Shown here piece after piece: positions 2,892 through 52,858 of a stretch of DNA of 64,000 nucleotides. Made by a program: the position numbers and the translations under genes. The notes beneath the pieces were generated by a model. That model ran no database searches and was not told where the DNA came from. It worked only from the letters and a program-made list of their open reading frames with translations. Position 1 is the stretch's first letter. The number at the start of each line of letters is the position of its first letter. Location of the stretch: positions 4,588,001 to 4,652,000 of the forward strand of contig JAWMAR010000104.1 of the NCBI GenBank assembly GCA_036785375.1. The letters are read 5' to 3'. The stretch is from Leucoraja ocellata. Its lineage: Eukaryota.

Positions 2892-4761
2892 TAACCTAAC
2901 TTAATTGCAGTAGTTGGAATCTAGAACTAAACACAAAGTGCAAGAGGATGCGAGCTGACCGGCTGAATTCCATTAACACTTTGTGGTCTATTGCAGTCCA
3001 GTGTTCCCATACCAACAAATTAAGCAAGAGAGACCTTGTTTAAGTAGATATTCTTTATCATTTTTGTGTTAATTTTAGGAGATTAAAGCGAGTTAGTGAT
3101 TTTTTTAACGCTTTCAATGTCACCAGCTGATTAAGCGATTTTGCCTTTCAAGTAAAGAGTTCGCGCATAAGAGAATCGAGAACTCGAAATCAAGAAGTTA
3201 TTATCAGGTGCTTTTCCTACCGTCACATAAAATTTAGAAAAATTGTATATTTGGATTGCTTCTGTCAGATGTGTCTGCATTACTGCGCGCATTATAATCC
3301 AGGAAATCAGACCGATATTATGGGAAGCAACGAATTTAGGTATCGGTGCGTGCTGGGACGCGGAAGAGTTGGTGAATTTCTGAAGTCCTCTTTAATTTGT
3401 GAATCGCTGTTTCATTGTGCTTTCCTTCCACACATTCACCGTGCAATCACCACATAAGGGACTCAATGACGCATTGATCCATGGAGCTTTCTTTATTAAT
3501 CTTTCTTTATCCTTCGAGAAAAAATATTTCTAGTTACCAAACCTGTCGCCTAAATTTAAGCTTTACAATAAACGCCATTCGTAATTTCGTAGCTGGGATT
3601 TTACATGTCATTATCGACAGAAGCATTAGAATTGATATCCCAGGAAGGGAGCAATTAATGTCAAAATAAATTAATTGCAAATCGAAACGCAGCAAGATTT
3701 TATCCTTTGGCATAAAATTGAAGGCCTTCAATGCGTTAGGCCAGACGCGAGCTGCTTCCGTTATTCTACTATTTTAATTCCCGCAATAATACTGATGCGC
3801 CTAGCTCATTTTACGCACTTCACCTTTGATGCTGTTTCACAGCTCTTTCCTGCTATATCTTATTTGTGCTTTACTCCATCGTCTCTTGTACTATATCGTC
3901 GACAAGACTGCCTGGTCTACGTCTGATCTGTTAAAATATCCGCACAATCATTCTACGGAAGATTATAGTGGTGAAGTGGGCAAGATTTTTACATCCTGGC
4001 AGATAGCATGTTCAGCGTAAAGCACCCATTCGTCAGGAACTCCACTGAATGAAAATTTACGGAGGATTTCCGAAGCCACAGTGGTCACATACTGATTGGA
4101 TACCAATTTTCTTGCTACTTTGAATTTGGGATTTTTTATTTCCTATCTGCAGATATGGTTATTAATGATTGTGTCACGCGAACCTAGCAAATATCAAATT
4201 CTAAGACAAGGAATATTAATTGTAACAATACGTGCGAAATCAGTACAAGTAAACATGAACAATTAGGAAATAATATAAGGAATAAAATCAAAGCAAAGTG
4301 TGATTCGGAAATCTTTGTATTAACATAATTCTGGAGATGGGCCAGTTAGCTTTTAAATGCCGAATTATTATTTTTTAATGGTATGTTATATTGCCAAATG
4401 TGGCTTCTTTTTTTTCTTAATAATTTCGGCTGCAGAGCGATATACAATTACGTCAACTCATTTGACCCAACTATGAAATCTCGTCTCTATAAACCACTAA
4501 CATAAAAGGCATCAAAGCCTCATTTGGCCGTTAATTAACTGAGGAAAGCTAAACGATTAACGTAACAGCTTTGGGACGCTTCATCAGAGCTAGGAAAGTT
4601 GAAGGTAAGTTTGTTTACGTCGGGGAGCGGAGGATAGAAAATATGAATATCTCTCAAAGGTTAAGATCAAATACCTATGTGCAGCGGCAGAGGTAGCACT
4701 GAGGATAGGTTTATGTTTCATTGGTTCTTAGGTGCATCGCAAAATGTTTCTCATTTATGAG

Positions 4762-6416
4762 AATGGAAACTAGTAGGGTAGCTATGGATACTATGAGTTT
4801 CAAAGTAAAACAAGTACTGACACTTTTGAAAAATATAAAAATGGATAAATCTCCAGGTCCTGACAGGATATTCCCTAGGACATTGAGGGAAGTTAGTGTA
4901 GAAATAGCCGGGGCTATGACAGAAATATTTCAAATGTCATTAGAAACGCAAATAGTCCCCGAGGATTGGCGTACTGCGCATGTTGTTCCATTGTTTAAAA
5001 AGGGTTCTAAGAGTAAACCTAGCAATTATAGGCTTTGACTTCAGTGGTGGGCAAATTAATGGAAAAGATACTTAGAGATAATATATATAAGCATCTGGAT
5101 AAACAGGGTCTGATTAGGAACAGTCAGCATGGATTTGTGCCTGGAAGGTCATGTTTGACTAATCTTGTTGAATTTTTTGAAATGGTTACTAGGGAAATTG
5201 ACGAGGGTAAAGCAGTGAATGTTGTCTATATGGACTTTACATGACTTTGACAAGGTTCCTCATGGAATGTTGGTTAAGAAGGTTCAACTGTTGGGTATAA
5301 ATGCAGGAGTAGCAAGATGGGTAGCAACAGTGGCTGAATGGGAAAAGCCAGAGGGCAATGGTGGATGGTTGTTTGTCGGGTTGGAGGCAGGTGACTAGTG
5401 GGGTGCCTCAGGGATCGGTGTTGGGTCCTTTGTTGTTTGTCATGTACATCAGTGATCTGGATGAAGGTGTGGTAAATTGGATTAGTAAGTATGCAGATGA
5501 TACCAAGATAGGGGGTGTTGTGGATAATGAGGAGGATTTCCAAAGTCTACAGAGTGATTTAGGCCATTTGGAAGAATGGGCTGAAAGTTGGCAGATGGAG
5601 TTTAATGCTGATAAATGTGAGGTGCTACACCTTGGCAGGACAAATCAAAATAGGACGTACATGGTAAATGGTAGGGAATTGAAGAATACAGTTGAACAGA
5701 GGGATCTGGGAATAACCGTCCCTAGTTCCTTGAAGGTGGAATCTCATATAGATAGGGTGGTAAAGAAAGCTTTTGGTATGCTAGCCTTTATAAATCAGAG
5801 CATTGAGTACAGAAGCTGAGATGTAATGTTAATATTGTACAAGGCATTGGTGAGACCAAATCTGGAGTATGGTGTACAATTTTGGTCGCCCAATTATAGT
5901 AAGGATGTCAACAAAATAGAGAGAGTACAGAGGAGATTTACTAGAATGTTGTCTGGGTTTCAACAACTAAGTTATAGAGAAAGGTTGAATAAGTTAGGTC
6001 TCTTTATTCCCTGGAGCGCAGAAGGTTAAGGGGGGACTTGATAGAGGTATTTAAAATGATGAGAGGGATAGACAGAGTTGACGTGGATCAGCTTTTCCAT
6101 TTGAGAATAGGGAAGATTCAAACAAGAGGACATGACTTCAGAATTAAGGGACAGAAGTTTAGGGGTAACATGAGGGGGAACTTCTTTACTTAGAGAGTGA
6201 TAGCGGTGTGGAATGAGCTTCCAGTGGAAGTGGTGGAGGCAGGTTCGTTGGTGTCATTTAAAAATAAATTGGATAGGCATATGGATGAGAAGGGAATGGA
6301 GGGTTATGGTATGAGTGCAGGCAGGTGGGACTAAGGGAAAAAAGTTGTTCGGCACGGACTTGTAGGGCCGAGATGGCCTGTTTCCGTGCTGTAATTGTTA
6401 TATGGTTATATGGTTA
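4762..6416 (+). mobile_element. 5'-truncated CR1-type LINE with reverse transcriptase remnant
   Basis: ORF pieces KSPGPD..., QHGF, GVPQGSVLGPLLF and YADDTK. (TATGGTTA)n tail. TSD TATGAG at 4756-4761 and 6417-6422; the empty paralogous site TTCTCATTTGTGAGCCCTG is at ~18832. Confidence 0.93.
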
Positions 6417-20610: not shown

Positions 20611-22986
20611 TCATTGCGCCTGAGACGTGGGAGCGCCGCATGGCTTCAAGAAGAGAAAATCACTTTTCGCTGACTCTGGAGACAGGCAGACCGAGTATTG
20701 ATGCGGTTCCGGCACGCGGACAACCCGTCCCGTCCCGGGATAGCGTAAAGTTTCCTCCATGGCAGGCCTTCCATTAAACGTGCCCTGCGAATCTCCGCGA
20801 TTGTAACAATAACTGGGGGTGTTATACCCTTGGATGATACTTCTATCCTGTTTACACTTGATCCCAATTAACAGAACGATGATCAGAAGAAAGACAACGG
20901 AGGTGCAACTGAAAATGATGATTAAGTAAACATTTGGATCAGATAAATATCCCGGATTTTTCACCAATGTACTGCTTTCCGTGATTCCTTCAGTACTGTT
21001 CTCCAATACGCTAATGTTCATTGTAACTGTACTGGACAGGCTTGGCTGCCCATTGTCCTTCACCAAGATGACGAGAGTATGTACAGGAGTATCTGTCTGC
21101 AAAATACTGCGCGCTGTTCTGATTTCACCTGAATTTTTCGTAACGGTGAACAAAGTGGGATCGGTAGATTTCACCATCTGATAAAAGATCCGAGCATTCT
21201 GACCAGAATCTTCATCAGTTGCCATTATCTTGGTGACCAAATACCCTTCACCCGCTGACCGGGGCAAAACCTCTGCTGATCCACTTTGTTCTGAAGGTGA
21301 AACAATTACGGGCACGTTGTCATTTTGATCCAGGATGATCACATTCACCGTGGCGCTGCTGCTCAATGGAGGCACCCCAGCGTCTCGGGCTTGTACGTTA
21401 ATCTGGAAGTTTTTGAGTTCCTCATAGTCAAATGACCGCAACGCATAAATGGTACCGTTCATGGAGTTAATGGCCAGGTAAGTGGACACTGGTAGATTTT
21501 GGATGAAATTGTCCACCAAAGAGTAAGAAACATAGGAATTCTGCTCCAGATCAGGATCTAGAGCAGTTAGAACGAAAATCGATGCGCCGGGTGCATTGTT
21601 CTCCATCACATATACGTTATAGGATGATTCAGCAAACCGCGGGGCGTTATCGTTTACATCGGTTATTGTAATATGGATGGTTTTATTTGACGTCAGTGAT
21701 GGCGATCCCAGGTCCCGTGCTAGAATTGGTAATTTAAACTCAGAAATTGTTTCACGGTCCAACGTTGCACTGGTAATTAATTTATAATGGTTCGATGATG
21801 TCTGTAGTCTAAATGGGATATTCTTGGGTAACTCGCAGCTGATTTGACCGTTCTCTCCAGAATCCCGGTCAATAACATCAATGAACGTTATGAATGTCCC
21901 TGGCGGAGCATTTTCCGGGATTTTGCTGGAAGCTGATGTCACCTTAATCTCAGGCGCGTTATCGTTCACGTCAATGACCTTGATCAGCACGTTAGAATGT
22001 CCGGCCATTGCGGGTGAACCGCGGTCCACAGCTTGAACAGCAAGAGAATAGCTGTTTGCTTCTTCAAAATCCAGCGGTCCTTCAACTCGAACCTCCCCAC
22101 TATCTGGGTCTAAACTGAATAAATGACGCGCTTTTCGCAAATCAACATCACTGAAAGAATATGCTATCTCAGCATTCAGCCCTTCGTCCAAATCATTTGC
22201 TTTGACTTTCAGCACCAAGGTACCATGTGGTGCATCCTCGCTTACGCTGACCCTGTAAATGTCATCATCAAACACAGGCGCATTATCATTGAAGTCCAAA
22301 ACAGTAACAAGAATCTGAGCTGTCCCTGTTCTCTGAGGAGTGCCACCGTCTGTCGCAGTGAGCAAGAGCTGAAAAGAAGATAGCAGCTCTCGGTCCAGTG
22401 ACTTATCTAACAGCAACTCTGGTATAAGAACATCGCTCTCGGTTCTGTGTGTTTTGATACTAAAATACTCGGTGAAATTGATTGTGTAGGCGACGACAGT
22501 ATTTATTCCAATATCAGGATCGTCTGCCCTCTCGAGACGGAAACGTACCCCGGGTGCACTCGCTTCCGATGTCTGTAATACGATGCTGCCGTTTCCGAAA
22601 GTAGGTGGATTATCATTGACATCAAGAATCTCTACTACACCGCGGTACACCTCTAACGGATTTTCCAGTGTTGTTTTAAAAGACACGGTACACATTTCCG
22701 CTTGCCTACAGATACGTTCTCTGTCGATTCTTTCACGAATAGATAATATTCCATTGTCCAAACTAACCTTCATGTATCGCCCTCCGTCATCGGAGCTCAG
22801 TCGGAATTTGCGAGCTGACAATTGCCGTACGTTCAGGCCCAGATCTTGAGCGATATTTCCAACAAATGCCCCTTCTTCTTTTTCTTCGAGTATAGAATAA
22901 CGCAATTGCCCGGAAATTAGATCCGGTGCACATATCAGAAGCATGAATGCAAGCACGTTAAAAGGAAACCTCGGTCCGTACGCCAT
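20611..22986 (-). CDS. Clustered protocadherin, 791 aa, intact
   Basis: ATG at 22986 (MAYGPRF); six EC repeats, TM, tail ending SQAQ*. Confidence 0.97.
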   Translation of the reverse strand: MAYGPRFPFNVLAFMLLICAPDLISGQLRYSILEEKEEGAFVGNIAQDLGLNVRQLSARKFRLSSDDGGRYMKVSLDNGILSIRERIDRERICRQAEMCTVSFKTTLENPLEVYRGVVEILDVNDNPPTFGNGSIVLQTSEASAPGVRFRLERADDPDIGINTVVAYTINFTEYFSIKTHRTESDVLIPELLLDKSLDRELLSSFQLLLTATDGGTPQRTGTAQILVTVLDFNDNAPVFDDDIYRVSVSEDAPHGTLVLKVKANDLDEGLNAEIAYSFSDVDLRKARHLFSLDPDSGEVRVEGPLDFEEANSYSLAVQAVDRGSPAMAGHSNVLIKVIDVNDNAPEIKVTSASSKIPENAPPGTFITFIDVIDRDSGENGQISCELPKNIPFRLQTSSNHYKLITSATLDRETISEFKLPILARDLGSPSLTSNKTIHITITDVNDNAPRFAESSYNVYVMENNAPGASIFVLTALDPDLEQNSYVSYSLVDNFIQNLPVSTYLAINSMNGTIYALRSFDYEELKNFQINVQARDAGVPPLSSSATVNVIILDQNDNVPVIVSPSEQSGSAEVLPRSAGEGYLVTKIMATDEDSGQNARIFYQMVKSTDPTLFTVTKNSGEIRTARSILQTDTPVHTLVILVKDNGQPSLSSTVTMNISVLENSTEGITESSTLVKNPGYLSDPNVYLIIIFSCTSVVFLLIIVLLIGIKCKQDRSIIQGYNTPSYCYNRGDSQGTFNGRPAMEETLRYPGTGRVVRVPEPHQYSVCLSPESAKSDFLFLKPCGAPTSQAQ

Positions 22987-23224
22987 TGTTCCGCACTCAA
23001 ATAATGTTGAAAAACAGGCCTCTCCTCGATTAATCGGTAAAACTGTTCTTAATACGAAGTAGAATATATCTTCTAATTGCCTAGTCAAAACAGGCAGGGA
23101 ATTATATCCTCCGCAGCTTTATAATACGATAAAACGCAGAGACTGCTCGCCTTTCTGTCGGGTCTGGCGTTTTTATTCTGGGATGTAGGAGGGGCAATGG
23201 ATCCATCTGTGTACTTCAGCTTCT

Positions 23225-24037: not shown

Positions 24038-24144
24038 GAAACAAATAGTGAATTGCTAATATCTTTTCTCGGCATCAGTTGATTTCTTGGTTGGAATTAA
24101 ATTAGAGGCGAAGAAATGCCAAAGTATCCAAGATATATTCAAAT

Positions 24145-25366
24145 AAAGTGAGTTCGGTATTCCGACTGTGCATGCCCGGTCATAGGTCACCAGCTATAAA
24201 CAGTCTCGGCAACGGTGGTGCTGCATTGTGTGCAGGCTTGCGTTTCGGCCGTGGTCGGGGTCGGGCCCGGCTCTCCGTCGCTGCGGGCGCTGTTGAATTG
24301 CTGCTGGACAGTCCCCATCTGAACCCCGGTGTCCCGTCCCTGTCCGGGGTGGCCCTGAGCTGGCTGGGCAGCCCCGGACTTGCAGCCGGTGCTGCAGCTG
24401 CTGGCTCCAGCTCGGCTCTGCCTGTCCCGCCCGGTTGGCCTGCAGCACTCTACCTCCAACCCCCTCCCCTCAGTCCGACACCGAGGTCCTACTGAAGATG
24501 GGCATGCGCCAGCCGTGCTCGAAGGGGCGACTCGGAGCCTGGTCGGAGAGTCTGCGGACGGGCTCCTGCCGGCCATGGGCAGACCGGGCGCCCGCTGGAA
24601 CTGCTGGTCCTGCTGGTGGTGCTGGCGGTAGCAGGAAATTCCGCCCCCCTCACTTGCCCAGCCCCAAACCCAGACTCCGGGCCAGCTCTAACTCCAGGTC
24701 GAGGCTGAAAGCCGCCCGCAGCGCAGCCCAGGAGGCCGAGCCCAGGCTGGCGCTGACGCAGGCGAGGCCCTTGCTCCTCCTCTGGGTTGTGGATGAAGTG
24801 GCAGCGGTTACCGTAGGGGCTGAAGCCGGTAGTGTGCACGTATGGTGGCTTGTACTTGCGGTGGCTTGTAATTGAGGAGCGCAGCTCGGCCAGGCCATGG
24901 GGGAACTGGCACTTGTCGCCGTAACGGCCCATCGGGGAGCGGGTTCCCTTGTTGTTGGAGCGGGATTGAGCTGGAATTGCCGCTAGCTGTGCGCTGTTTC
25001 ACCGTGCTGGCTGTGGGTCTGGGGCTCCTGGTGTCGTTGGTCCGGGCTGTCAGTTGACCCGGCGGGAGAGACGGTGAGCTGGGTTTGGCGCTTCTGTGCG
25101 CTGGCGGGGCCTAGGAGCCGGCGTCCCGTGGGCCTGGACGTCTCCGGCCGACCCCCGGGCGGTCGATCCTGTCTGCGGATGAGGCGGATGAAGCGGATCC
25201 CCCCCCCCCCCCCCCCCCCCCCCCCGTCTCCTCACCCCCTCACCCCGTCTCCCACTCGCATCTGCCCTCTCTATCTGCCCCCTGACAAATACAAACTTGA
25301 AAAAGCTACACTCACTGAATCTACAGCACTTCGATCGATGTTTATTCGGAGTACCGAACTCGCTTG
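24145..25366. mobile_element. Non-autonomous TIR DNA element carrying captured host gene sequence (Pack-TIR-like)
   Basis: Left end AAAGTGAGTTCGGTATTCCGA (24145-24165) and the reverse complement of the right end, CAAGCGAGTTCGGTACTCCGA (25346-25366), match 18/21. Four paralogous units show the empty site ...TTCAAA|TTACTCTGA... (~39220, ~47468, ~54186, ~60803). Confidence 0.85.
24470..25000 (-). pseudogene. ZFP36/TIS11-family (tandem CCCH zinc finger) pseudogene fragment
   Basis: RYGDKCQFPHGLAELRS..HRKYK..HTTGFSPYGNRCHFIHN (decayed tandem zinc finger). After a frameshift, WRMPIFSRTSVSD* (stop at 24470-24472) matches the family C-terminal RLPIFSRLSISD motif. GC-rich island in an AT-rich context. 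5' boundary approximate. Confidence 0.9.
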
Positions 25367-25564
25367 TTACTCTGACTAAAATGAGCGCAACTTGGAATGG
25401 AAGCATACGTTTGTGGTGGTGAAGTAGGCTAATATTCTTCCAAAGACATCTTGCAGAGATGAAAGTGATAAAAGATTCTGAAAATCGATTTTATTTTTTT
25501 CGGCACGTCATTTAGGGTCTGTCTGATCTACTCAGATTCCCATATCCAACAACCTATGTCCTAT

Positions 25565-25639
25565 GATAGGTGAGGTTTCGGGTCGGGACCTTTCTTTAGA
25601 CAGTATGAAGAAGAGTCCCGACCCCAAACGTCACCTATC
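25565..25639. repeat. Imperfect palindrome of two back-to-back degenerate Penelope-type hammerhead motifs
   Basis: GATAGGTGAGGTTTCGGGTCGGGACCTTTCTTTAGAC versus GTATGAAGAAGAGTCCCGACCCCAAACGTCACCTATC. More decayed copies at ~39420, ~47665, ~54383 and ~60984. Confidence 0.65.
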
Positions 25640-25980
25640 GAAGGTGGGCAAAAATGCTGGGGAAACCTTTCTTCGGGCCGAAACCTTTCTTCATTTAATC
25701 CAGCATTTTGTGTCTTTCCTTGGTAAACCTGCATCCGCATTTCCTTGGTTCTAACTTTTGCCATTATTCTGTGTATGCTAGAGATGCTTCTTGTGTTCTG
25801 ACTGTAATCTGCTCCTTTGACATTGTTGATGGAGCCACTGAGGATATCCGCTGCTGTCCATCGAACATTTCTCGTGAATTTGAAAGCACGGGTGCACTAG
25901 GGAATCAGATAAAGGCTTCAAAATATTCCAGTGTTGTTTCTACTACCATCACTCAGCAATGTTTATATTCGGATTGATTT

Positions 25981-27657: not shown

Positions 27658-30048
27658 TCATTGCGCCTGAGACGTTAGGCCTGAGTCGGGATCGCCGCGT
27701 GGCTTCAAGAAGAGAAAATCACTTTTCGCTGACTCTGGTGAGAGGCAGACAGAGTATTGAAGCGGTTCCGGCACGCGGACAACCCGGCCTGTCCCAGGAT
27801 AGCGTAAAGTTTCCTCCATCGCATGTCTTCCATTAAACGTACCGTGCGCATCTCCACGATTGTAACAATAACTGGGGGTGTTATACCCTTGGATAATACT
27901 TCTGTCCTGCTTACACTTGATCCCAATCAGCAGAACGATGATGAGAAGAAAGGCAACGGAAGTGCAACTGAAAATGATGATTAAATAAACATTTGGATCT
28001 GAGAAATATCCCGGATTTTTCACCAAGGTGCTGCTTTCCGTGATTCCTTCAGTACTGTTCTCCAAAACTCTAATGTTCATTGTAACTGTACTGGACAGGC
28101 TTGGCTGCCCATTGTCCTTCACCAAGATGACCAGAGTGTGTACAGGAGTATCTGTCTGCAAAATACTACGCGCTGTTCTGATTTCACCGGAGTTTCTCGT
28201 AACTGCGAACAAGGTGGGATCGGTAGATTTCACCATCTGATAAAAGATCCGTGCATTCTGACCAGAATCTGCATCAGTTGCCATTATCTTGGTGACCAAA
28301 TACCCTTGACCCGCTGAGCGGGGCAGGCCCTCCTCTGCTGCTGATCCACTCTGATATGAAGGTGAAACAATTACCGGAGCGTTGTCATTTTGATCCAGGA
28401 TGATCAGATTCACCGTGGCGCTGCTACTCAGCGGTGGCACCCCAGCGTCCCGGGCTTGTACATGGATCTGGAAGTTTTTGAGTTCCTCATAGTCAAAGGA
28501 TCGCAACCCATAAATGGTACCGTTCGTGGGGTTAATTGCCAGGTAAGTGGACACCGGTAGATTTTGGATGAAATTGTCCACCAAAGAATAAGAAACATAG
28601 GAATTCTGCTCCAGATCAGGATCTACAGCAGTTAGAACGAAAATCGATGCGCCGGGTGCATTGTTTTCCATCACATACACGTTGTAGGTTGATTCAGCAA
28701 ACCGCGGGGCGTTATCATTTACATCGGTTATTGTAATATGGATGGTTTTATTTGAGGACAGTGAAGGCGACCCCAGGTCCCATGCTGAAATTGGTAATCG
28801 ATATTCAGAAATCCCTTCACGGTCCAATGTTTCACTAGTAACCAATTTATAAAGGTTCGATGATGTCTGTAGTCTAAAGGGGATATTCTTGGGTAAATCA
28901 CAGCGAACTTGACCGTTCTCCCCAGAATCACGATCGATAACATCAATGAAGGTTATGAATGTACCTGGCGGTGCATTTTCCGGAATTTGTTTGGGAGTTG
29001 ATGTCACCTTAATCTCGGGTGCGTTATCGTTCACGTCAATGACCTTGATCAGCACGTTAGAATGTCCTGTCATTGCGGGTGAACCGTGGTCCACAGCTTG
29101 AACATCAAGAGAATAGCTGTTTGTTTCTTCAAAATCCAAGGGCCCTTCAACTAGAATCTTCCCACTATTTGGATCTAAACTGAATACATTACGCGCTCTT
29201 CGCAAATCAACATCACTAAAATAATATGTTATCTCAGCATTCAGCCCTTCGTCCAAATCATTTGCTTTGACTTTCATCACCAAGGTACCATGTGGCGCGT
29301 CCTCACTTACGCTGACCTTGTAAATATCACGATCAAACACCGGCTCGTTGTCATTAATGTCGAACACAGTTACAAGAATCTGAGCTGTTCCTGTTCTCTG
29401 AGGAGTGCCACCGTCTGTCGCAGTAAGCAAGAGCTGAAAAGAAGATTGCAGCTCTCGGTCCAAAGGTTTATCTAACAGCAACTCTGGTATGAGAACATCG
29501 CTCTCTGTTCTGCGTGTTTTTATACTAAAGTACTCGGTGAAACTGATCGTGTAGGCGGCGATGGTATTGATTCCATTGTCGGGATCTTCCGCCCTCTCGA
29601 GACGGAAGCGTACCCCGGGTGCACTCAGTTCCGATATCTGTAAGGCGATGCTGCGGTCTCCGAATGCGGGGGAATTATCATTGACATCAAGAATCTCAAC
29701 CACACCGCGGTACACCTCCGAGGGATTTTCCAGTGTTGTTTTAAAAGACACGGTACAGATGTCTGCTTGCCTACAGATACGTTCCCTATCGATTCTTTCA
29801 CGAATAGATAATATTCCATTGTCCAAACTAACCTTCAAGTAGCGCCCCCCGTCATCGGAGCTCAGTCGGAATTTGCGAGCTGACAATTGCCGTACATTCA
29901 GGCCCAGATCTTGAGCAATATTCCCAACAAATGCCCCTTGCTCCATTTCCTCGGGAATAGAGTAACGAATTTGCCCGCAAATTAGATCCTGTTCACATAT
30001 CAGAAGCATGAATGCAAACACGTTGAAAGGAAACCGTAGGTACGCCAT
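27658..30048 (-). CDS. Clustered protocadherin, 796 aa, intact
   Basis: ATG at 30048 (MAYLRF); six EC repeats, TM; tail has a 4-aa insertion. Confidence 0.97.
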   Translation of the reverse strand: MAYLRFPFNVFAFMLLICEQDLICGQIRYSIPEEMEQGAFVGNIAQDLGLNVRQLSARKFRLSSDDGGRYLKVSLDNGILSIRERIDRERICRQADICTVSFKTTLENPSEVYRGVVEILDVNDNSPAFGDRSIALQISELSAPGVRFRLERAEDPDNGINTIAAYTISFTEYFSIKTRRTESDVLIPELLLDKPLDRELQSSFQLLLTATDGGTPQRTGTAQILVTVFDINDNEPVFDRDIYKVSVSEDAPHGTLVMKVKANDLDEGLNAEITYYFSDVDLRRARNVFSLDPNSGKILVEGPLDFEETNSYSLDVQAVDHGSPAMTGHSNVLIKVIDVNDNAPEIKVTSTPKQIPENAPPGTFITFIDVIDRDSGENGQVRCDLPKNIPFRLQTSSNLYKLVTSETLDREGISEYRLPISAWDLGSPSLSSNKTIHITITDVNDNAPRFAESTYNVYVMENNAPGASIFVLTAVDPDLEQNSYVSYSLVDNFIQNLPVSTYLAINPTNGTIYGLRSFDYEELKNFQIHVQARDAGVPPLSSSATVNLIILDQNDNAPVIVSPSYQSGSAAEEGLPRSAGQGYLVTKIMATDADSGQNARIFYQMVKSTDPTLFAVTRNSGEIRTARSILQTDTPVHTLVILVKDNGQPSLSSTVTMNIRVLENSTEGITESSTLVKNPGYFSDPNVYLIIIFSCTSVAFLLIIVLLIGIKCKQDRSIIQGYNTPSYCYNRGDAHGTFNGRHAMEETLRYPGTGRVVRVPEPLQYSVCLSPESAKSDFLFLKPRGDPDSGLTSQAQ

Positions 30049-30289
30049 TGTTCCGCATTCAATTAATATCGAAAACCAGGCCTTTCCTCGATTAAACGGT
30101 AAAACTGTTCTTTCCACGAAATAGAAACATATATATTCTAATTGCCTAGTCGAAACAGACAGGGGATGTATCCTTTGTAGCTTGATAACACGATAAAACG
30201 CAGAGACTGCCCGCCTTTCTCTTCGGGTCTGCCGTTTTTATTCTGGGATGTAGGAGGGGCAATGGATCCATCTGTGGACTTCAGCTTCT

Positions 30290-34093: not shown

Positions 34094-34402
34094 TACATTT
34101 ACTTGTACAAGCGTGTACAAATAAATGGATACAGCATCCTGAATGTAATTGATCCTGCAGTAATGTATATTTGCACGTCGTTCAATGACTTATTTCACAG
34201 TTGACTGATTCCGCTCTCAGAAGATGGGAATTTATTTGCTAAGAGTTATATATTTTTAACCATTACAACAAATGCATTATTTAAACAAAAGCGCAAAAAT
34301 GCACAAACTGAATATTTTCTTAAATATCTCACTCACAAATGATTCACATGCCCAGAGATTAAAATGATCCCAAATAATATGCAACTTCTTTATGGTTACG
34401 CA

Positions 34403-36784
34403 TCATTGCGCCTGAGACATGGGAGCACCGCACGGCTGCAAAAATAGAAAATCACTTTTCGCTGACTCTGGAGACAGGCAGACCGAATATTGATGCGGTT
34501 CCGGCACGCGGACAACCCGGCCTGTCCCAGGATAGCGTAAAGTTTCCTCCATCGCATGTCTTCCTTTATACGTATCTTGCGAATCTCCACGATTGTAACG
34601 ATACCTGGCAGAGTTATACCCTTGGATAATACTTCTGTCCTGTTTACACTTGATCCCAATCAACAGAACGATGATCAGAAGAAAGACAACGGAAGTGCAA
34701 CTGAAAATTATGATTAAATAAACATTTGGATCTGAGAAATATCCCGGATTCTTCACCAAGGTGCTGCTTTCCGTGATTCCTTCAGTACTGTTCTCCAAAA
34801 CTCTAATGTTCATTGTAACTGTACTGGACAGGCTTGGCTGCCCATTATCCTTCACCAAGATGACGAGAGTGTGTACAGGAGCATCTGTGTGCAAAATACT
34901 GCGAGCTGTTCTGATTTCACCTGAATTTTTCGTAACGGTGAACAAAGTGGGATCGGTAGATTTCATCATCTGATAAAAGATCCGTGCATTCTGACCAGAA
35001 TCTGCATCAGTTGCCATTATCTTGGTGACCAAATACCCTTGACCCGCTGAGCGGGGAAGGCCCTCCTCTGCTGCTGATGCACCTAGTTCTGAAGGTGAAA
35101 CTATTACCGGCGCGTTGTCATTTTGATCCAGGACGATCACATTCACCGTGGCGCTGCTACTCAGCGGAGGCACCCCAGCGTCACGGGCTTGTACATGGAT
35201 CTGGAAGTTTTTGAGTTCCTCATAGTCAAAGGATCGCAACGCATAAATGGTACCGTTCATTGAGTTAATGACCAGGTAAGTGGACACTGGTAGATTTTGG
35301 ATCAAATGGTCCACAAAAGAGTAAGAAACATAGGAATTCTGCTCCAGATCAGGATCTAGAGCAGTTAGTACGAAAATCGATGCGCCGGGTGCATTGTTCT
35401 CCATCACATACACGTTGTAGGATGATTCAGCAAACCGCGGGGCGTTATCGTTTACATCGGTTATTGTAATATGGATGGTTTTATTTGAGGATAATGAAGG
35501 CGACCCCAGGTCCCATGCTGAAATTGGTAATCGATATTCAGAAATCCCTTCACGGTCCAACGTGTCACTGGTAACTAATTTATAATGGTTCGATGATGTC
35601 TGTAGTTTAAATGGGATATTCTTGGGTAACACGCAGCGAACCTGACCGTTCTCCCCAGAATCCCGGTCAATAACATCAATGAAGGTTAGGAATGTTCCTG
35701 GCGGAGCATTTTCCGGAATTTGTTTGGAAGCTGATGTCACCTTAATCTCAGGTGCGTTATCGTTCACGTCAATGACCTTGATCAGCACGTTAGAATGTCC
35801 TGTCATTGCGGGTGAACCGTGGTCCACAGCTTGAACATCGAGCGAATAACTGTTTGTTTCTTCAAAATCCAAGGGCCCTTCAACTCGAACCTCCCCACTA
35901 TCTGGATCTAAACTGAATAAATGACGCGCTCTTCGCAAATCAACATCATCGAAAGAATATGTTATCTCAGAATTTAGCCCTTCGTCCAAATCATTTGCTT
36001 TGACTTTCATCACCAAGGTACCATGTGGTGCGTCCTCACTTACGCTGACCTTGTAAATATCACGATCAAACACCGGCGCGTTGTCATTAATGTCGAACAC
36101 AGTAATGTGAATCTGAGCTGTCCCTGTTCTCTGAGGAGTCCCACCGTCTGCCGCAGTAAGCAAGAGCTGAAAAGAAGATTGCAGCTCTCGGTCCAGTGAC
36201 TTATTCAACAGCAACTCTGGTATAAGAACATCGCTCTCGGTTCTGCGCGTTTTTATACTGAAATACTCGGTGAAACTGATCGTGTAGGCGGCGACGGTAT
36301 TGATTCCAATGTCGGGATCTTCCGCCCGCGCGAGACGGAAACGTATACCGGGTGCACTCGCTTCCGATATCTGTAAGGCGATGCTGCCGTCTCCGAACGT
36401 GGGGGAATTATCATTGACATCAAGAATCTCTAATTCCCCGCGGTACACCTCCGAGGGATTTTCCAGTGTCGTTTCAAAAGGCACGGTACAGATTTCTGCT
36501 TGTCTACAAATACGTTCCCTATCAATTCTTTCACGAATAGATAATATTCCATTGTCCAAACTAACCTTTAAGTAGCGCCCTCCGTCATCGGAGCTCAGTC
36601 GGAATTTGCGAGCTGACAGTTGCAGTTCATTCAGGCCCAGATCTTGAGCAATATTCCCAACAAATGCTCCTTGCTCCATTTCCTCGGGAATAGAGTAACG
36701 AATTTGCCCGGAAATTAGATCCTGTTCACATATCAGAAGCATGAATGCAAACACGTTGAAAGGAAACCTCGGTAAATACGCCAT
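34403..36784 (-). CDS. Clustered protocadherin, 793 aa, intact
   Basis: ATG at 36784 (MAYLPRF); six EC repeats, TM and tail. Confidence 0.97.
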   Translation of the reverse strand: MAYLPRFPFNVFAFMLLICEQDLISGQIRYSIPEEMEQGAFVGNIAQDLGLNELQLSARKFRLSSDDGGRYLKVSLDNGILSIRERIDRERICRQAEICTVPFETTLENPSEVYRGELEILDVNDNSPTFGDGSIALQISEASAPGIRFRLARAEDPDIGINTVAAYTISFTEYFSIKTRRTESDVLIPELLLNKSLDRELQSSFQLLLTAADGGTPQRTGTAQIHITVFDINDNAPVFDRDIYKVSVSEDAPHGTLVMKVKANDLDEGLNSEITYSFDDVDLRRARHLFSLDPDSGEVRVEGPLDFEETNSYSLDVQAVDHGSPAMTGHSNVLIKVIDVNDNAPEIKVTSASKQIPENAPPGTFLTFIDVIDRDSGENGQVRCVLPKNIPFKLQTSSNHYKLVTSDTLDREGISEYRLPISAWDLGSPSLSSNKTIHITITDVNDNAPRFAESSYNVYVMENNAPGASIFVLTALDPDLEQNSYVSYSFVDHLIQNLPVSTYLVINSMNGTIYALRSFDYEELKNFQIHVQARDAGVPPLSSSATVNVIVLDQNDNAPVIVSPSELGASAAEEGLPRSAGQGYLVTKIMATDADSGQNARIFYQMMKSTDPTLFTVTKNSGEIRTARSILHTDAPVHTLVILVKDNGQPSLSSTVTMNIRVLENSTEGITESSTLVKNPGYFSDPNVYLIIIFSCTSVVFLLIIVLLIGIKCKQDRSIIQGYNSARYRYNRGDSQDTYKGRHAMEETLRYPGTGRVVRVPEPHQYSVCLSPESAKSDFLFLQPCGAPMSQAQ

Positions 36785-38693: not shown

Positions 38694-40115
38694 TTTACTT
38701 TAGTTTCGAGATATAACGCGTAAAAGGGCCCTTTGGCCCACCAACACCGCCCTGACCAGCGATCCCTGCACACTAACACTATCCTACACATACATTGAGG
38801 ACAAGGTACAATTTTACCAAGGCAATTTGCCTACAAATCATTAGGTCTTTTGAATATAGAAGGAAACACTGACAATGACAATTAAAATTGAATCTGAATC
38901 TGAATCTGAAACCGGAGCGCTCGGAGAAAACCTGCACAGGTAACGGCAGTACGTACTATCTCTGTACAGAGAGCACCCGTAGTCAAGATCGAACTCGGGT
39001 CTCTGACGCTGTAAGGCAGCAACTCTACAGGTGCGTCACCGTGCCGCCCTGTATACTTGCTATATAGATATAATGGTCCAGGCTAATGTTAACAAATCAA
39101 ATATTTAATTACTAATATCATTTTCTTTTCTCGGCAGCCGTTGATTTCTTGGATGGAATTAAGTTCGAAAAGTGAAGAAACTCCAAAGCCTGAGCACGAG
39201 TGCGCAGATATATTCTTCAAATTACTCTGATTGCAGTGAGCCCAACTTGGAATGGAAGCATGCGTTTATCGTGGTCAAATCGAAGGTTAATATTCTTCCA
39301 AAGACACCTTATAGTGATCAAAGTGATGTTACATTCTGAAATATCTTTTCGGCATGTTATTTAGGGATGGTCAGATCTCCTGAGATTGAAATACCCAACA
39401 ACTTATGCCCTTTGATTATGTGATGTTTCGGGCCGGGATCATTCATCAGACAATACGAGGAAGAGTCCATACCCGAAAGGCACCTATCCAAGTTATCTCA
39501 GGGTGCTGCCTGACCCATTGATATACTTTGGCGTTTAGTGTCTTTCCTTGGTAAACCAGCATCCGCATTGCCTTGTTTGTAACTTATGTCATTATTCCCT
39601 GTATCCTGGAGATGCTTCATGTGTTTTGACATGAATCTGCTCTATTGGTCTTGTTGGTAGAGCCACTGACAATATCCGTCGCTGTCCATCGAACATTCCT
39701 CGTGAAATTGAACGTATGAATGCACTAGGAATTCAAATGATCGCTTCAAAATATCCTAGTGCTGTTTACACCGCCACCATTCAGCAATGTTTAGATTATG
39801 ATTGACTCGGTCAATGTGGCACAGAGGCAGAGGTGGTGCCTAAAGGCGCCAGAGACCCGGGTTCAATCCTGACTACGGGTGTTATCTGCATGGAGTGTGT
39901 ACATTCTCCCTGTGACCGCGTAGGTTTTCTCCGCTGCTCCGGTTTCCTCCCACATCCCAAAGACTTACAGGTTTAAAATCTAAGTGGCTTCTGTAAAAAT
40001 TGAACATTTTCCCCCGTGTGTAGGATAGTGCCGGTGTACGGGGTGATCGATGGTCGGGTGGGCTCGCTGGACCGAAGAGCCTGTTTCCACGCTGTATCTC
40101 AAAGCTAAAACTAAA
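38694..40115. mobile_element. Divergent V-SINE pair (minus ~38694-39049, plus ~39809-40115)
   Basis: Minus copy starts GGGCGGCACGGTGACGCA with B box GAGTTCGATC; plus copy has GGTTCAATCC and the V-domain core. Confidence 0.8.
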
Positions 40116-42463: not shown

Positions 42464-44057
42464 TCATTCGGCCTGAGAAATGGGAGCACCGCATGGCTGC
42501 AAAAAGAGAAAATCACTTTTCGCTGATTCTGGAGACAGGCAGACCGAATATTGATGCGGTTCCGGCACGCGGACAACCCGGCCCGTCCCAGGATAGCGTA
42601 AAGTTTCCTCCATCGCATGTCTTCCTTTATACGTATCTTGCGAATCTCCACGATTGTAACAATACCTGGGGATGTTATACCCTTGGATAATACTTCTGTC
42701 CTGTTTACACTTGATCCCAATCAACAGAACGATGATCAGAAGAAAGACAACGGAAGTGCAACTGAAAATGATGATTAAATAAACATTTGGATCAGAGAAA
42801 TATCTCGGATTTTTCACCAAGGTGCTGCTTTCCGTGATTCCTTCAGTACTGTTCTCCAAAACTCTAATGTCCATTGTAACTGTACTGGACAGGCTTGGCT
42901 GTCCATTATCCTTCACCAAGATGACCAGAGTGTGTACAGGAGTATCTGTCTGCAAAATACGGCGCGCTGTTCTGATTTCACCGGAGTTTCTCGTAACGGT
43001 GAACAAAGTAGGATCGGTAGATTTAACCACTTGATAAAAGATCCGTGCATTCTGACCAGAGTCTGCATCAGTTGCCATTATCTTGGCGACCAAATACCCT
43101 TGACCCGCTGAGTGGGGCAGGCCCTCCTCTGCTGCTGATCCACTCTGATAAAAAGGCGAAACGATTGCCGGCGCGTTGTCATTTTGATCCAGGACGATCA
43201 CATTCACCGTGACGCTGCTACTCAGCGGAGGCACCCCAGCGTCACGGGCTTGTACATGGATCTGGAAGTTTTTGAGTTCCTCATAGTCAAAGGATCGCAA
43301 CGCATAAATGGTACCGTTCATGGAATTAATGGCCAGGTAAGTGGACACTGGTAGATTTTGGATGAAATTGTCCACCAAAATGTAAGAAACATAGGAATTC
43401 TGCTCCAGATCAGGATCTATAGCAGTTAGAACGAAAATCGATGCGCCGGGTGCATTGTTCTCCATCACATATACGTTGTAGGTTGATTCAGCAAACCGCG
43501 GGGCGTTATCATTTACATCGGTTATTGTAATATGGATGGTTTTATTTGAGGACAGTGAAGGCGACCCCAGGTCCCATGCTGAAATTGGTAATCGATATTC
43601 AGAAATCCCTTCACGGTCCAATGTTTCACTGGTAACCAATTTATAAAGGTTCGAAGAATTCTGTAGTCTAAATGGGATATTCTTGGGTAAATCACAGCGA
43701 GTTTGACCGTTCTCCCCAGAATCACGATCCGCAACATCAATGAAGGTTATGAATGTTCCTGGAGGTGCATTTTCCGGGATTTTGTTGGAAGCTGATGTCA
43801 TCTTAATCTCGGGTGCGTTATCGTTCATGTCAATTACCTTGATCAGCACGTTAGAATGTCCTGTAATTGCGGGTGAACCGTGGTCCACAGCTTGAACATC
43901 AAGAGAATAGCTGTTTGTTTTTTCAAAATCCAAGGGCCCATCGACTCGAACCTCCCCACTGTCTGGATCTAAACTGAATACATTACGCGCTTTTCGCAAA
44001 ACAACATCACTAAAATAATATGTTATCTCAGCATTCAGCCCTTCGTCCAAATCATTT
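42464..44057 (-). CDS. Clustered protocadherin, 3' part (mid-EC3 to stop); 5' part lost in the assembly gap
   Basis: Open frame from the gap edge to SQAE*. Confidence 0.9.
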
Positions 44058-44257
44058 NNNNNNNNNNNNNNNNNNNNNNNNNNNNNNNNNNNNNNNNNNN
44101 NNNNNNNNNNNNNNNNNNNNNNNNNNNNNNNNNNNNNNNNNNNNNNNNNNNNNNNNNNNNNNNNNNNNNNNNNNNNNNNNNNNNNNNNNNNNNNNNNNNN
44201 NNNNNNNNNNNNNNNNNNNNNNNNNNNNNNNNNNNNNNNNNNNNNNNNNNNNNNNNN
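44058..44257. other. Assembly gap (200 N)
   Basis: Run of N. The flanks belong to different exons (EC3 on the left, EC6 on the right), so they cannot be joined into one gene. Confidence 1.
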
Positions 44258-46143
44258 GTCTGCAAAATACGGCGCGCAGTTCTGATTTCACCTGAATTTT
44301 TCGTAACGGTGAACAAAGTGGGATCGGTAGATTTCACCATCTGAAAAAAGATCCTTGCATTCTGACCAGAATCTGCATCAGTTGCCATTATCTTGGTGAC
44401 CAAGTACCCTTGACCCGCTGACCGGGGCAGAACCTCCTCTGATCCACTTTGTTCTGAAGGTGAAACAATTACGGCGCGTTGTCATTTTGATCCAGGATGA
44501 TTACATTCACTGTGGCGCTGCTGCTTAGCGGAGGCAACCCAGCGTCACGCGCTTGTACAAGGATCTGGAACTGCTTCAGTTCCTCATAGTCAACGCCACG
44601 CAACAGATAAATTGTACCATTCATTGAGTTAATAGTCAGGTAAGTGGACACTGGTAGTTTTGGATGTAATTGTCCAAAAAGAGTAAGAAATATAGGAATT
44701 CTGCTCCTGATCAGGATCCAGTGCTGTTACTGCGAAAATGGATGCACCCGGAGCGTTAATCTCCATCACATATACGTTGTAGGATGATTCAGAAAACCGC
44801 GGGGCGTTGTCATTTACATCGGTTATTGCAATATGAATGGTTTTATTTGACGACAGTGAAGGCGATCCCAAGTCCCATGCCGAAATTAGTAATTTATACT
44901 GAGAAATCACTTCACGGTCCAACGTTTCACTGGTAACCAATGTATAATGTTTCGATGCTGTTTGTAGTCTAAAGGGAACGTTCTTGGGTAACTCGCAGCG
45001 GACTTGAACCGTTCTCTCCAGAATCACGATCCATAACATCAATGAACGTTATGAATGTTCCTGGTGGAGCATTTTCCGGGATTTTGTTGGAAGTTGATGT
45101 CACCTTAATCTCGGGTGCGTTATCGTTCACGTCGATTACCTTGATCAGCACGTTAGAATGTCCGGTCATTGAGGGTGAACCGTGGTCCACAGCTTGAACA
45201 TCAAGAGAATAGCTGGTTGTTTCTTCAAAATCCAAGGGCCCATCGACTCGAACCTCCCCACTATTTGGATCTAAACTGAATACATTACGCGCTTTCGCAA
45301 ATCAACATCACTAAACGAATATGTTATCTCAGCATTCAGCCCTTCGTCCAAGTCATTTGCTTGACCCTCATCACCAAGGTACCATGTGGTGCGTCCTCAC
45401 TTACGCTGACCTTGTAAATATCACGATCAAACACCGGCGCGTTGTCATTAATGTCGAACACAGTAATGATAATCTGAGCAGTCCCTGTTCTCTGAGGAGT
45501 GCCACCGTCTGTCGCAGTAAGCAAGAGCTGAAAAGAAGATTGCTGCTCTCGGTCCAAAATTTTATCTAACAACAACTCTGGTATAAGAACATCGCTCTCG
45601 GTTCTGCGTGTTTTTATACTAAAATACTCGGTGAAACTGATCGTGTAGGCGGCGACGGTATTGATTCCAATGTCGGGATCTTCCGCCCTCGCGAGACGAA
45701 AACGTACACCGGGGTACTCGCTTCCGATATCTGTAAGGCGATGCTACCGTCTCCGAAAGTGGGGGAATTATCATTGACATCAAGAATCTCTAATTCCCCG
45801 CGGTACACCTTCAAGGGATTTTCCAGTGTTGTTTTAAAAGACAGAGTACACATTTCCGCTTGTCTACAGATACGTTCCCCTATCAATTCTTTCACGAATA
45901 GATAATATTCATTGTCCAAACTAACCTTCATGTAGCGCCCTCCGTCATCGGAGCTCAGTCGAAATTTGCGAGCTGATAATTGCCGTACATTCAGGCCCAG
46001 ATCTTGAGCAAAATTCCAATAAATGCCCCTTGCTCCATTTCCTCAGGAATAGAGTACCGAATTTGCCCGGAAATTAGACCCTGTTCACATATCAGAAGCA
46101 TGAATGCAAACACGGTGAAAGGAAACCTCCGTAGGTTCGCCAT
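44258..46143 (-). pseudogene. Clustered protocadherin exon with multiple 1-bp frameshifts (pseudogene or contig-end errors)
   Basis: ATG at 46143. Broken into ORF pieces 45614-45931, 45336-45575, 44969-45235, 44629-45042 and 44469-44651. The indels mostly fall in short homopolymers. Confidence 0.7.
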
Positions 46144-46384
46144 TGTTCCGCATTCAATTAATATCGAAAACCAGGCCTGTCCTCAATTAATCGGTAAAAA
46201 ATGTTCTTTCCACGAATAGAAACATATATATTCTAATTGCCTAGTCGAAACAGACAGGGGATGTTTCCTCTGTACCTTGATAACACGATAAAACGCAGAG
46301 ACTGCCCGCCTTTCTCTTCGGGTCTGCCGTTTTTATTCTGGGATGTAGGAGGGGCAATGGATCCATCTGTGGACTTCAGCTTCT

Positions 46385-46429
46385 CATTGGTAGACAGCGA
46401 CACAACCAGTTTTTTTTCTGCAACTGCAG
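46385..46429 (-). promoter_or_regulatory. Protocadherin CSE (11-nt spacer)
   Basis: CTGCAGTTG-N11-CTGGTTGTGTCGCTGTCTACCAATG. Confidence 0.8.
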
Positions 46430-46983
46430 CTACAATTCTTAAAGCTGTACTGTAGTCTTAAATAAAACGCCATGGACCACTTCAATTTTGTTTTCAGCAC
46501 ACAGCTTCTAAAGTCCTGGTATGTGCGTTTACGGGGCAATTTGACTTGATATGTTAAAACATGTTTCACACAGAGTTTATTAATTTTTATTCTTGATTCG
46601 TAAATGACTTCTAGCATGATAAATCATGTTATAGAGGTAAATCTTCATGTGTCCCCCATCACCAATCTTGCTGTTGACCGTGGAATTAATGGTTTCAGGA
46701 ACAGTGTGTAATGGCTTAAAATAAATTAGTTCGAGATACGAGAATAGGATGTACAGTTACGGGACTGAGGTAAACGTGTTAAGTAATTGCCTAAAGAAGG
46801 ATCCTCGGAAAGACCAAACATTGAAGATTATGTGCGCTTTTGTTCATTCATGGGGAAAGCAAGGTGGAGACTTCAATGGAGTGCTACATTGGTCTACCTT
46901 ACATACTTTAAGATTAATTTGGGAACATCGAAATGGTGAATTGCCTAAAGTTTTGTCGACTCTTTTGTTTCGCGATTTGACTT

Positions 46984-50476: not shown

Positions 50477-52858
50477 TCATTCGGCCTGAGACATGGGAGC
50501 ACCGCATGGCTGCAAAAAGAGAAAATCACTTTTCGCTGACTCTGGAGACAGGCAGACCGAGTATTGATGCGGTTCCGGCACGCGGACAACCCGGCCAGTC
50601 CCAGGATAGCGTAAAGTTTCCTCCATCGCAGGTCTTCCTTTATACGTATCTTGCGCATCTCCACGATTGTAACAATAACTGGGAGTGTTATACCCTTGGA
50701 TAATACTTCTGACCTGTTTACACTTGATCCCAATCAACAGAACGATGATCAGAAGAAAGACAACGGAAGTGCAACTGAAAATGATGATTAAATAAACATT
50801 TGGATCTGAGAAATATCCCGGATTTTTCACCAAGGTGCTGCTTTCCGTGATTCCTTCAGTACTGTTCTCCAACACTCTAATGTTCATTGTAAGTGTACTG
50901 GACAGGCTTGGCTGCCCATTGTCCTTCACCAAGATGATCAGAGTGTGTACAGGAACATCTGGCTGCAAAATACTACGCGCTGTTCTGATTTCACCTGAAT
51001 TTTTCGTAACGGTGAACAAAGTGGGATCGGTAGATTTCACCATCGGATAAAAGATCCGAGCATTCTGACCAGAGTCTGCATCAGTTGCCATTATCTTGGT
51101 GACCAAGTACCCTTGACCCGCTGACCGGGGCAGAACCTCCTCTGCTGCTGATCCACCTTGTTCTGAAGGTGAAACAATCACCGGCGCGTTGTCATTTTGA
51201 TCCAGGATGATCACATTCACTGTGGCGCTGCTGCTTAGCGGAGGTAACCCAGCGTCACGCGCTTGTACAAGGATCTGGAACTGCTTGAGTTCCTCATAGT
51301 CAACGCCACGCAACAGATAAATGGTTCAATTCATTGAGTTAATAGTCAGGTAAGTGGACACTGGTTGGATTTGGATGTAATTGTCCAAAAAAGAGTAAGA
51401 AATATAGGAATTCTGCTCCTGATCAGGATCCAGTGCTGTTACTGCGAAAATGGATGCACCCGGAGCGTTATTCTCCATCACATATACGTTGTAGGATGAT
51501 TCAGAAAACCGCGGGGCGTTATCATTTACATCGGTTATTGCAATATGAATGGTTTTATTTGACGACAGTGAAGGCGATCCCAAGTCCCATGCCGAAATTA
51601 GTAATTTATACTGAGAAATCACTTCACGGTCCAACGTTTCACTGGTAACCAATGTATAATGTTTCGATGTTGTTTGTAGTCTAAATGGAACGTTCTTGGG
51701 TAGCTCGCAGCGGACTTGACCGTTCTCTCCAGAATCACGATCGATAACATCGATGAACATTATGAATGTTCCTGGTGGAGCTTTTTCCGGGATTTTGTTG
51801 GAAGCTGATGTCACTTTAATCTCGGGTGCGTTATCGTTCACATCGATTACCTTGATCTGCACGTTAGAATGTCCTGTCATTGAGGGTGAACCGTGGTCCA
51901 CAGCTTGAACATCAAGAGAATAGCTGTTTGTTTCTTCAAAATCCAAGGGCCCATCGACTCGAACCTCCCCACTGTCTGGATCTAAACTGAATACATTACG
52001 CGTTTTTCGCAAATCAACATCACTAAAAGAATATGTTATCTCAGCATTCAGCCCTTCGTCCAAATCATTTGCTTTGACCTTCATCACCAAGGTACCATGC
52101 GGCGCGTCCTCACTTACGCTGACCCGATAGATGTCATTATCAAACACAGGCGAATTATCATTGAAGTCCAAAACAGTAACGATAATCTGAGCAGTCCCTG
52201 TTCTCTGAGGAGTCCCACTGTCTGTCGCAGTAAGCAAGAGCTGAAAAGAAGATTGCTGCGCTCGGTCCAAAGATTTATCTAACAGCAACTCTGGTATTAG
52301 AACATCGCTCTCGGTTCTGCGTGTTTTTATACTGAAATACTCGGTGAAACTGATCGTGTAGGCGGCGACGGTATTGATTCCAATGTCGGGATCTTCCGCC
52401 CTCTCGAGACGAAAACGTACACCGGGGGTACTCGCTTCCGATATCTGTAAGGCGATGCTGCGGTCTCCGAAAGCGGGGGAATTATCATTGACATCAAGAA
52501 TCTCTAATTCCCCGCGGTACACCTTCAAGGGATTTTCCAGTGTTGTTTTAAAAGACAGAGTACACATTTCCGCTTGTCTACAGATACGTTCCCTATCAAT
52601 TCTTTCACGAATAGATAATATTCCATTGTCCAAACTAACCTTCATGTAGCGCGCTCCGTCATCGGAGCTCAGTCGAAATTTGCGAGCTGATAATTGCCGT
52701 ACATTCAGGCCCAGATCTTGAGCAATATTCCCAATAAATGCCCCTTGCTCCATTTCCTCTGGAATAGAGTACCGAATTTGCCCGGAAATTAGATCCTGTT
52801 CACATATCAGAAGCATGAATGCAAACACGTTGAAAGGAAACCTCCGTAGGTTCGGCAT
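50477..52858 (-). pseudogene. Clustered protocadherin with a single in-frame nonsense codon in EC5
   Basis: ORFs 51326-52858 and 50477-51313 are in the same frame. AAC TCA ATG AAT TGA ACC ATT TAT has TGA (51326-51328) where paralogues encode the Gly of NGTIY. Confidence 0.88.

Follow-up and report, generated by a model that had tools for sequence, protein, structure and literature searches.

A ZFP36 exon fragment in a skate protocadherin array, carried by an ISL2EU element and very probably relayed to two further transposon superfamilies

How did a GC-rich block with the remains of a ZFP36 gene come to lie between two protocadherin exons of a skate, and what became of the same fragment elsewhere in the genome? 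The window analyzed, a stretch of 64,000 nucleotides from Leucoraja ocellata (locus G000:C104; 3.44 Gb of assembly were searched), is a tandem array of units of ~6.6 kb, each with a minus-strand exon that we take, from its cadherin-repeat sequence, to be a clustered protocadherin variable exon. One spacer holds the insertion whose features are collected in Table 1. A 1.22-kb insertion bounded by terminal inverted repeats (TIRs) had been proposed from the letters of the window, and its limits proved accurate within 1 nt, with arms complementary at 18 of 20 positions. As also proposed, the insertion is GC-rich (65% versus 44% for the window), contains neither a poly(A) tract nor a transposase, and occupies a site that is empty in four paralogous protocadherin spacers. 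By contrast, the target-site duplication (TSD), previously read as TA or TTA, had to be corrected to AT, with an extra base on the left and a decayed copy on the right. Since the TSD is AT and not TA or TTA, the superfamily, earlier held to be beyond assignment, can be assigned. The window copy diverges by 9.9% from the consensus of cargo-bearing copies and has lost ~50 bp of one subterminal region. Contigs crossing a junction of this insertion were obtained from sequencing runs of three organism labels, with 0–1 differences, 3 differences, and 4 differences plus 9 gaps.

Table 1. Features of the insertion and its surroundings (positions in the window unless a contig is named)
Feature	Position	Strand	Remarks
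Clustered protocadherin variable exon	20611..23118	-	Element ~1 kb upstream of exon
AT target-site duplication, left copy	24143..24144	.	One extra A at 24145
Non-autonomous ISL2EU element with ZFP36/TTP fragment (Pack-ISL2EU copy)	24146..25365	.	
TIR, end where transposase reads inward in autonomous-type relics	24146..24165	+	
Internal arm	24166..24447	.	Also in cargo-free ISL2EU MITE members
Captured ZFP36/TTP exon-2 fragment	24448..24928	-	Parent G000:C378:34177-34739; stop codon 24470-24472
5' junction	24929..24932	-	4-bp microhomology common to precursor and gene
Internal arm	24933..25345	.	Also in cargo-free members; C run at 25199-25225
TIR, end where ORF2 reads inward in autonomous-type relics	25346..25365	-	
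TSD, right copy, decayed to GT	25366..25367	.	
Clustered protocadherin variable exon	27658..30237	-	Opposite side of element-bearing spacer
Empty paralogous target site	39221..39222	.	Further empty sites near 47468, 54186, 60803
Intact near-identical 5-kb Tigger-type elements	L248 G000:C2; L249 G000:C338; L250 G000:C109		

Other features of the window lie outside the element. To its right, a separate 85-bp hairpin (25560-25644; 42-nt arms, 81% complementary) belongs to a common repeat. Some protocadherin exons (42464-46452 and 50477-52897) are broken, through an assembly gap at 44058-44257 that a partly repeated exon adjoins and through frameshifts, possibly sequencing errors.

Read on its minus strand, the insertion retains half of CCCH finger 1 and finger 2 in damaged form, as well as GSESP and the C-terminal RMPIFSRTSVSD followed by a stop. 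The original prediction of a ZFP36-family copy with a partial CCCH domain, GSESP and the C-terminal motif was thus upheld, with the coding sequence split over two frames. Pfam detected zf-CCCH in this cargo (E=1.3e-4), and a PDB search with the C-terminal piece gave no useful match. At the 5' junction the element side supplies an ATG (24932-24930) in frame with the cargo. Alignment to the ZFP36-family genes of the genome identified the parent. Both fingers were found at four loci: ZFP36L1, ZFP36L2 and two copies of a third paralogue, one on contig C378 and a near-identical one on C2703. The C378 gene matches the cargo over its whole length; L1 and L2, which match only in the finger and the tail at ~81%, were rejected. 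Judged by these alignments, the parent is clearly the third paralogue. A TATA box, a short first exon, a single intron and a long 3' UTR were recognized in this gene; in the assembly it bears one frameshift that is absent from an independent 299-aa record. Its nearest named relatives are skate proteins, entered in databases variously as ZFP36-like, L1-like or L2-like. It is termed TTP-type here because in a tree it clusters with one lizard ZFP36 (support 95/83), a placement for which the tool warned of a long-branch join.

The parental span (34177-34739) measures 563 bp; it begins in the middle of finger 1 and ends 19 nt beyond the stop codon, wholly within exon 2, while the parental 3' UTR continues. 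Parent and cargo consensus differ at 32 of the 563 positions, with 21 synonymous and 8 non-synonymous changes (ratio 0.12); the window copy is frameshifted and differs from the parent by 12.6% substitutions. In most cargo copies the 5' junction is identical, and so is the 3' junction (parent 34177 and 34739). One copy, L077, looks basal because its cargo includes another 165 nt of the UTR and retains parental bases lost elsewhere. An alanine of the cargo consensus is present in the gene of Rhinoraja and changed in those of Amblyraja, Leucoraja and this genome, a single site that hints that the capture may predate the split of those lineages.

To what kind of element the TIRs belong was answered from copies elsewhere. 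The exact 23-nt terminus had 748 matches throughout the genome and its reversed control none, so the TIR is not a chance match. A DNA search with the element gave 54 rows from the best 40 of 2613 candidates; in 24 of 30 loci taken from this search both termini were present, and flanks were unrelated except in haplotype pairs. Among 30 loci picked by the terminus alone, only 7 showed ZFP36 sequence within 1.5 kb, indicating that most family members are cargo-free. A motif from the 3' part of the cargo, which recovers 27 of 35 independently identified copies, had 443 genomic matches with up to 3 mismatches (control, 0). Haplotype duplicates inflate such counts, 11 of 72 cargo loci being near-identical to another (2 of these a single locus), and the number of distinct ISL2EU cargo loci is estimated at a few hundred. 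The same chimera at many loci, with different flanks and TSDs, is multicopy by transposition, as the original prediction of a family spreading ZFP36 fragments had supposed.

The target site was read at 93 ends from cargo-selected loci. The TSD positions were A in 87 and T in 87, the outer base was A in 66 and T in 20, and the TIR started with AAG (A at 92 and A at 85 of the 93 ends). Comparison with empty repeat copies, for which 51 joins were tried, left seven testable; three (L020, L021, L023) showed a clean 2-bp AT duplication, a pattern that would formally also fit an element without TSD that ends T..A and sits in an A|T site, and the remaining four were decayed or unclear. A search with HTH_Tnp_4 led to a 542-aa frame with THAP, HTH_Tnp_4 and DDE_Tnp_4 domains (Pfam PF05485, PF13613 and PF13359). 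The TIR was found in 26 of 28 further loci matched by this transposase and in 0 of 41 control loci. These TIR-bearing partners are relics, all of them broken. One of their ends has the transposase reading inward and the opposite end a second ORF; none of the loci examined held an intact ISL2EU partner of full length, complete with both TIRs and both ORFs. Subterminal sequence within the right internal arm matches these relics, at 82% over 121 nt when the family consensus is compared. At C599, C155 and C28, matches to YqaJ stand next to transposase relics in convergent orientation. At L217, YqaJ and a related transposase relic occur without a TIR in the 4.5 kb examined; L218 has the TIR and no YqaJ match by tblastn. 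TIR-bounded relics keep the start of ORF2, with a weak SAP match (E=0.0037).

On its AT TSD, its A|AT|T preference and its same-TIR transposase relics, the element is classified as a non-autonomous ISL2EU (PHIS) transposon. An AT TSD within A|AT|T is the defining trait of ISL2EU elements (Han et al. 2015, PMC4482050), and the skate element resembles the group in this duplication and target, in its short TIRs and, through its relics, in a THAP-HTH-DDE transposase and a convergent second ORF. It differs in that its TIR begins AAG, whereas the ISL2EU TIR usually, though not strictly, begins GG, and in that the outer target base is T at about one fifth of ends (PMC4482050). Several other partners were rejected. 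A Crypton had been suspected from look-alike termini; PF12012 gave 29 matches, and no TIR lay near DUF3504 matches in the 25 loci and four 10-kb stretches examined. The skate element has TIRs, which Cryptons lack according to PMC3212892. A young ISL2EU family with 680-bp TIRs was dismissed as the mobiliser on account of its different ends, and a stretch of 5.8 kb between TIRs (L063) turned out to consist of nested MITEs into which a LINE had inserted.

These searches brought up further loci. The only intact 542-aa transposase frame of the TIR family (L113/L136; G000:C142:1197250-1198875, minus, with a copy on C592) has its catalytic residues in place, a family MITE in its upstream end and no TIR of its own that could be seen, other 542-aa matches having stops or being fragments; it is possibly a domesticated transposase. 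The young family just mentioned (L133-L135, L139, L140, L144) is 97–99% identical between copies; it has TIRs of ~680 bp and frames of 452 aa for a transposase and of 527 aa for YqaJ, and may be recently active. Two single-exon DUF3504 frames without TIRs, L097 (G000:C1:23129644; 459 aa), which appears to retain the tyrosine-recombinase catalytic motif, and L111 (G000:C688:243696; 387 aa), are probably Crypton-derived host genes. Cargo-free members of the ISL2EU MITE family (L034-L068) have interiors that vary greatly, from 0.3 to 1.5 kb, and hold SINE-like pieces in both orientations, which suggests that template switching is frequent in this family.

How the exon fragment entered the element can be approached from its junctions. 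Insertion of a ZFP36 retrocopy into a pre-existing element at the window locus would account for the intronless cargo. However, neither a poly(A) tract nor an inner TSD was found, the cargo ends well before the mRNA 3' end, and identical junctions recur at unrelated loci. The shared junctions refute a processed retrocopy, and this explanation is hardly credible. Comparison of cargo-free precursors with the gene revealed microhomology at both boundaries: the two share GCCG on the 5' side, and AG at the 3' junction that most copies have in common. The capture would have happened once, a non-autonomous ISL2EU MITE copying part of the TTP-type exon 2 into its middle, presumably by microhomology-guided template switching during gap repair. 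The template may instead have been spliced TTP mRNA or cDNA, with the same later history. The TTP transcript is abundant and highly inducible, and the captured piece lies in exon 2 without intron or upstream DNA; against this, it has no poly(A) and no mRNA 3' end, and microhomology at both junctions is what would be expected of DNA gap filling or fork switching, as treated in PMC8277862. An RNA or cDNA template is regarded as rather improbable. DNA-mediated capture in place of retroposition had been proposed: retroposition is ruled out, and a DNA template goes beyond what is proven, because a piece lying wholly within one exon looks the same from either source. Whichever the template, copies with common junctions between unlike flanks, their AT TSDs and the transposase relics bearing the same TIRs show transposition in trans; the ISL2EU transposase moved the chimera to several hundred A|AT|T sites, including the protocadherin spacer.

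The fragment is not confined to ISL2EU elements. DNA read depth was very high at the cargo 5' junction, and a 24-nt motif across it had 13,007 genomic matches (control, 0). A satellite was rejected as the cause, the matches being dispersed and lying within pogo elements. All 9 junction matches traced to their ends lay in elements of 1.1–2.3 kb that are bounded by 24-bp TIRs and flanked by TA at either end; every such element holds 2–4 junction matches in both orientations. Eight of these pogo MITEs were ~2–4% from their consensus over the last 430 nt, and the ninth has a deletion. The left end of the pogo family had 10,366 genomic matches. On contig C1 the exact junction was found within 2.5 kb of 16 of 50 exact pogo ends, which is a floor. 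Division of the 13,007 matches by the matches per element gives an estimate of ~4,000–6,000 pogo carriers of the ZFP36 piece. An empty-site check yielded only two weak, uninformative matches.

A search with DDE_1 led to an element of 5.0 kb (L248) with both TIRs, TA and the ZFP36 junction in its subterminals. Its 652-aa open frame has CENP-B_N, HTH_Tnp_Tc5 and DDE_1 above the Pfam cut-off and a DD32D spacing. Two further copies (L249, L250) are 99.6–99.8% identical to it, with other flanks. These three are candidates for an active transposon, and the pogo family is young. The family resembles Tigger/pogo elements in its TA TSD, its 24-bp TIRs and a single ORF with CENP-B_N, HTH and DDD; at 5.0 kb, the autonomous element exceeds the 2.1–4.5 kb listed for Tigger elements of Chondrichthyes in PMC9219625, which is explained by subterminals full of rearranged pieces of other elements, the ZFP36 junction among them. 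The subterminals of L248-L250 are a patchwork of other repeats that includes a tRNA-like stretch without an ARAGORN call; ARAGORN found no tRNA in 5 loci. Separately, intact DDE_1 frames of 570–680 aa are clustered on G000:C373 (about 58–325 kb; at least 10 frames), C207 and C258, and resemble domesticated pogo genes arrayed in tandem.

Between ISL2EU and pogo there probably stands a third kind of carrier. The pogo-borne piece shows the 11-bp deletion of the main ISL2EU subfamily together with private changes. Three loci (L204, L207, L208) combine the pogo-type private changes with the 3' ZFP36 end and a 356-bp deletion that is also present in the ISL2EU-ended copies L195, L200, L210 and L215. 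They share a Harbinger-like terminus adjoining TAA or TTA; both ends were seen in L208 only, flanked by TCA and TAA. The nesting of these shared derived changes gives the order gene, ISL2EU, Harbinger-like, pogo. Divergences of ~8% from consensus for ISL2EU, ~10% pairwise for Harbinger-like and ~2% from consensus for pogo copies agree with it. The ZFP36 fragment was thus very probably relayed from the gene to ISL2EU, then to a Harbinger-like element and then to pogo/Tigger, as a neutral passenger. Subfamilies would have lost in turn 165 bp of 3' UTR, 11 bp in finger 2 and 356 bp. For the hand-overs between carriers, whose manner we infer, a copy with the 356-bp loss would have shed its ISL2EU ends inside a Harbinger-like element, and this chimera would have been taken up by a pogo/Tigger lineage; there the ~120 bp of ZFP36 that were left would have been scrambled, inverted and recently amplified to thousands of loci. 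A shorter route would have pogo taking the fragment directly from an ISL2EU copy, with the Harbinger-like copies as a side branch or as recipients from a pogo ancestor; it gains from the Harbinger-like step resting on three distinct loci, with a superfamily read from termini and TWA flanks. But these copies hold more ZFP36 sequence than any pogo copy examined, already have pogo-specific changes and share with the pogo MITE flanking blocks that are not of ISL2EU origin (91–94% over 130–140 nt), which makes the direct transfer unlikely.

Whether the three-carrier relay moved anything of use to the host was assessed from the decay of the cargo. In 61 distinct ISL2EU cargo copies, mostly frameshifted, median divergence from the consensus was 7.9%, with 17.6% change at CpG sites. 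Their pN/pS was 0.70 (0.76 without CpG sites), compared with 0.12 between parent and consensus; that it stays below 1 may come from counting without correction and from repeated counting of subfamily changes. The cargo is most likely a neutral hitch-hiker: none of the copies codes for the two fingers together, and the majority have shifted frames. It would have travelled as neutral sequence throughout.

Retention for a function was weighed in two forms, small RNAs from pogo hairpins acting on ZFP36-family mRNAs, or a truncated competitor TTP from early copies, consisting of a single finger and the C-terminal tail. The C-terminal tail of ZFP36 binds CNOT1, and the junction supplies an in-frame ATG. 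Inverted junctions of pogo elements form a hairpin of 286 nt (-198 kcal/mol, z=-13.8), 54 of the 61 ISL2EU copies have an exact match of at least 21 nt to the parent exon, and the fragment survived two hand-overs. However, any inverted repeat folds well; Rfam returned only hairpin matches, below gathering score; and exact matches of pogo copies to TTP, L1 or L2 reach only 12–16 nt. Among 28 frames starting from the junction ATG, a single one includes finger 2 together with the C-terminal motif, its middle being out of frame, and the finger-2 linker is kept in 12 of 61 copies. RNA binding needs both fingers (PMC12710939). In the ~5% of one oligo-dT RNA run (X24) that was read, depth over the element was 0–45, equal on both strands and assignable to no locus or family, with ~45 reads at the junction region against 880 for a neighbouring common repeat. 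A retained function is thus very unlikely. Similarly far-fetched, and slightly more so, is the idea that selection kept the fragment, either by hairpin small RNAs that dampen TTP-family mRNAs or because silencing the element would strike the host gene; it is motivated by survival in three carriers, inversion into hairpins and presence in an intact autonomous pogo element. If true, transposons would have built a genome-wide regulator of a vertebrate inflammation gene.

Plant Pack-MULEs are non-autonomous TIR elements that amplify gene fragments, mostly pseudogenes. The skate elements are alike in carrying and amplifying such fragments, and differ in their animal host, in their superfamilies and in one fragment being traceable across carriers. 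In animals, Tan et al. (2021) reported 370 Pack-TIRs, of which 4 (1.4%) were multicopy, with examples of 3–5 copies; 98.6% were single-copy, 87% belonged to hAT or TcMariner, and elephant shark had none (PMC8277862). The skate case shares with these a host gene piece inside TIRs, a parent elsewhere, junction microhomology, a GC-rich cargo and, with their multicopy class, spread by later transposition. It departs from them in having hundreds of ISL2EU copies, followed by two other superfamilies and thousands of copies. Neither ZFP36 nor ISL2EU appears in the 12 supplementary files searched for that study, and neither ZFP36 nor CCCH in the text of PMC3597677. In the open literature searched, which excluded subscription journals, bioRxiv supplements, Repbase and Dfam, no report was found of host-gene capture by ISL2EU, of ZFP36 capture by a Pack-TIR or of a chondrichthyan Pack-TIR; the families may already be catalogued in Repbase or Dfam without mention of the cargo. 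The case is unusual in its superfamily, in how many copies there are and in a hand-over that can be traced; function there is probably none.

In animals, gene capture by cut-and-paste transposons is regarded as a rare event that nearly always leaves a single copy; here one fragment ends at thousands of loci. A single exon piece can be traced from its gene to ISL2EU and on to a second and a third superfamily, into an apparently intact transposon. In skates this has a practical side, as counts of CCCH-finger or ZFP36 genes will be swamped by transposon copies (all 150 of 150 matches were scored, and both fingers were present in only 4). It also makes a silencing conflict testable, in which small RNAs against the elements could touch ZFP36 mRNAs, and it provides a dated series for studying capture and transposon-to-transposon hand-over in a vertebrate.
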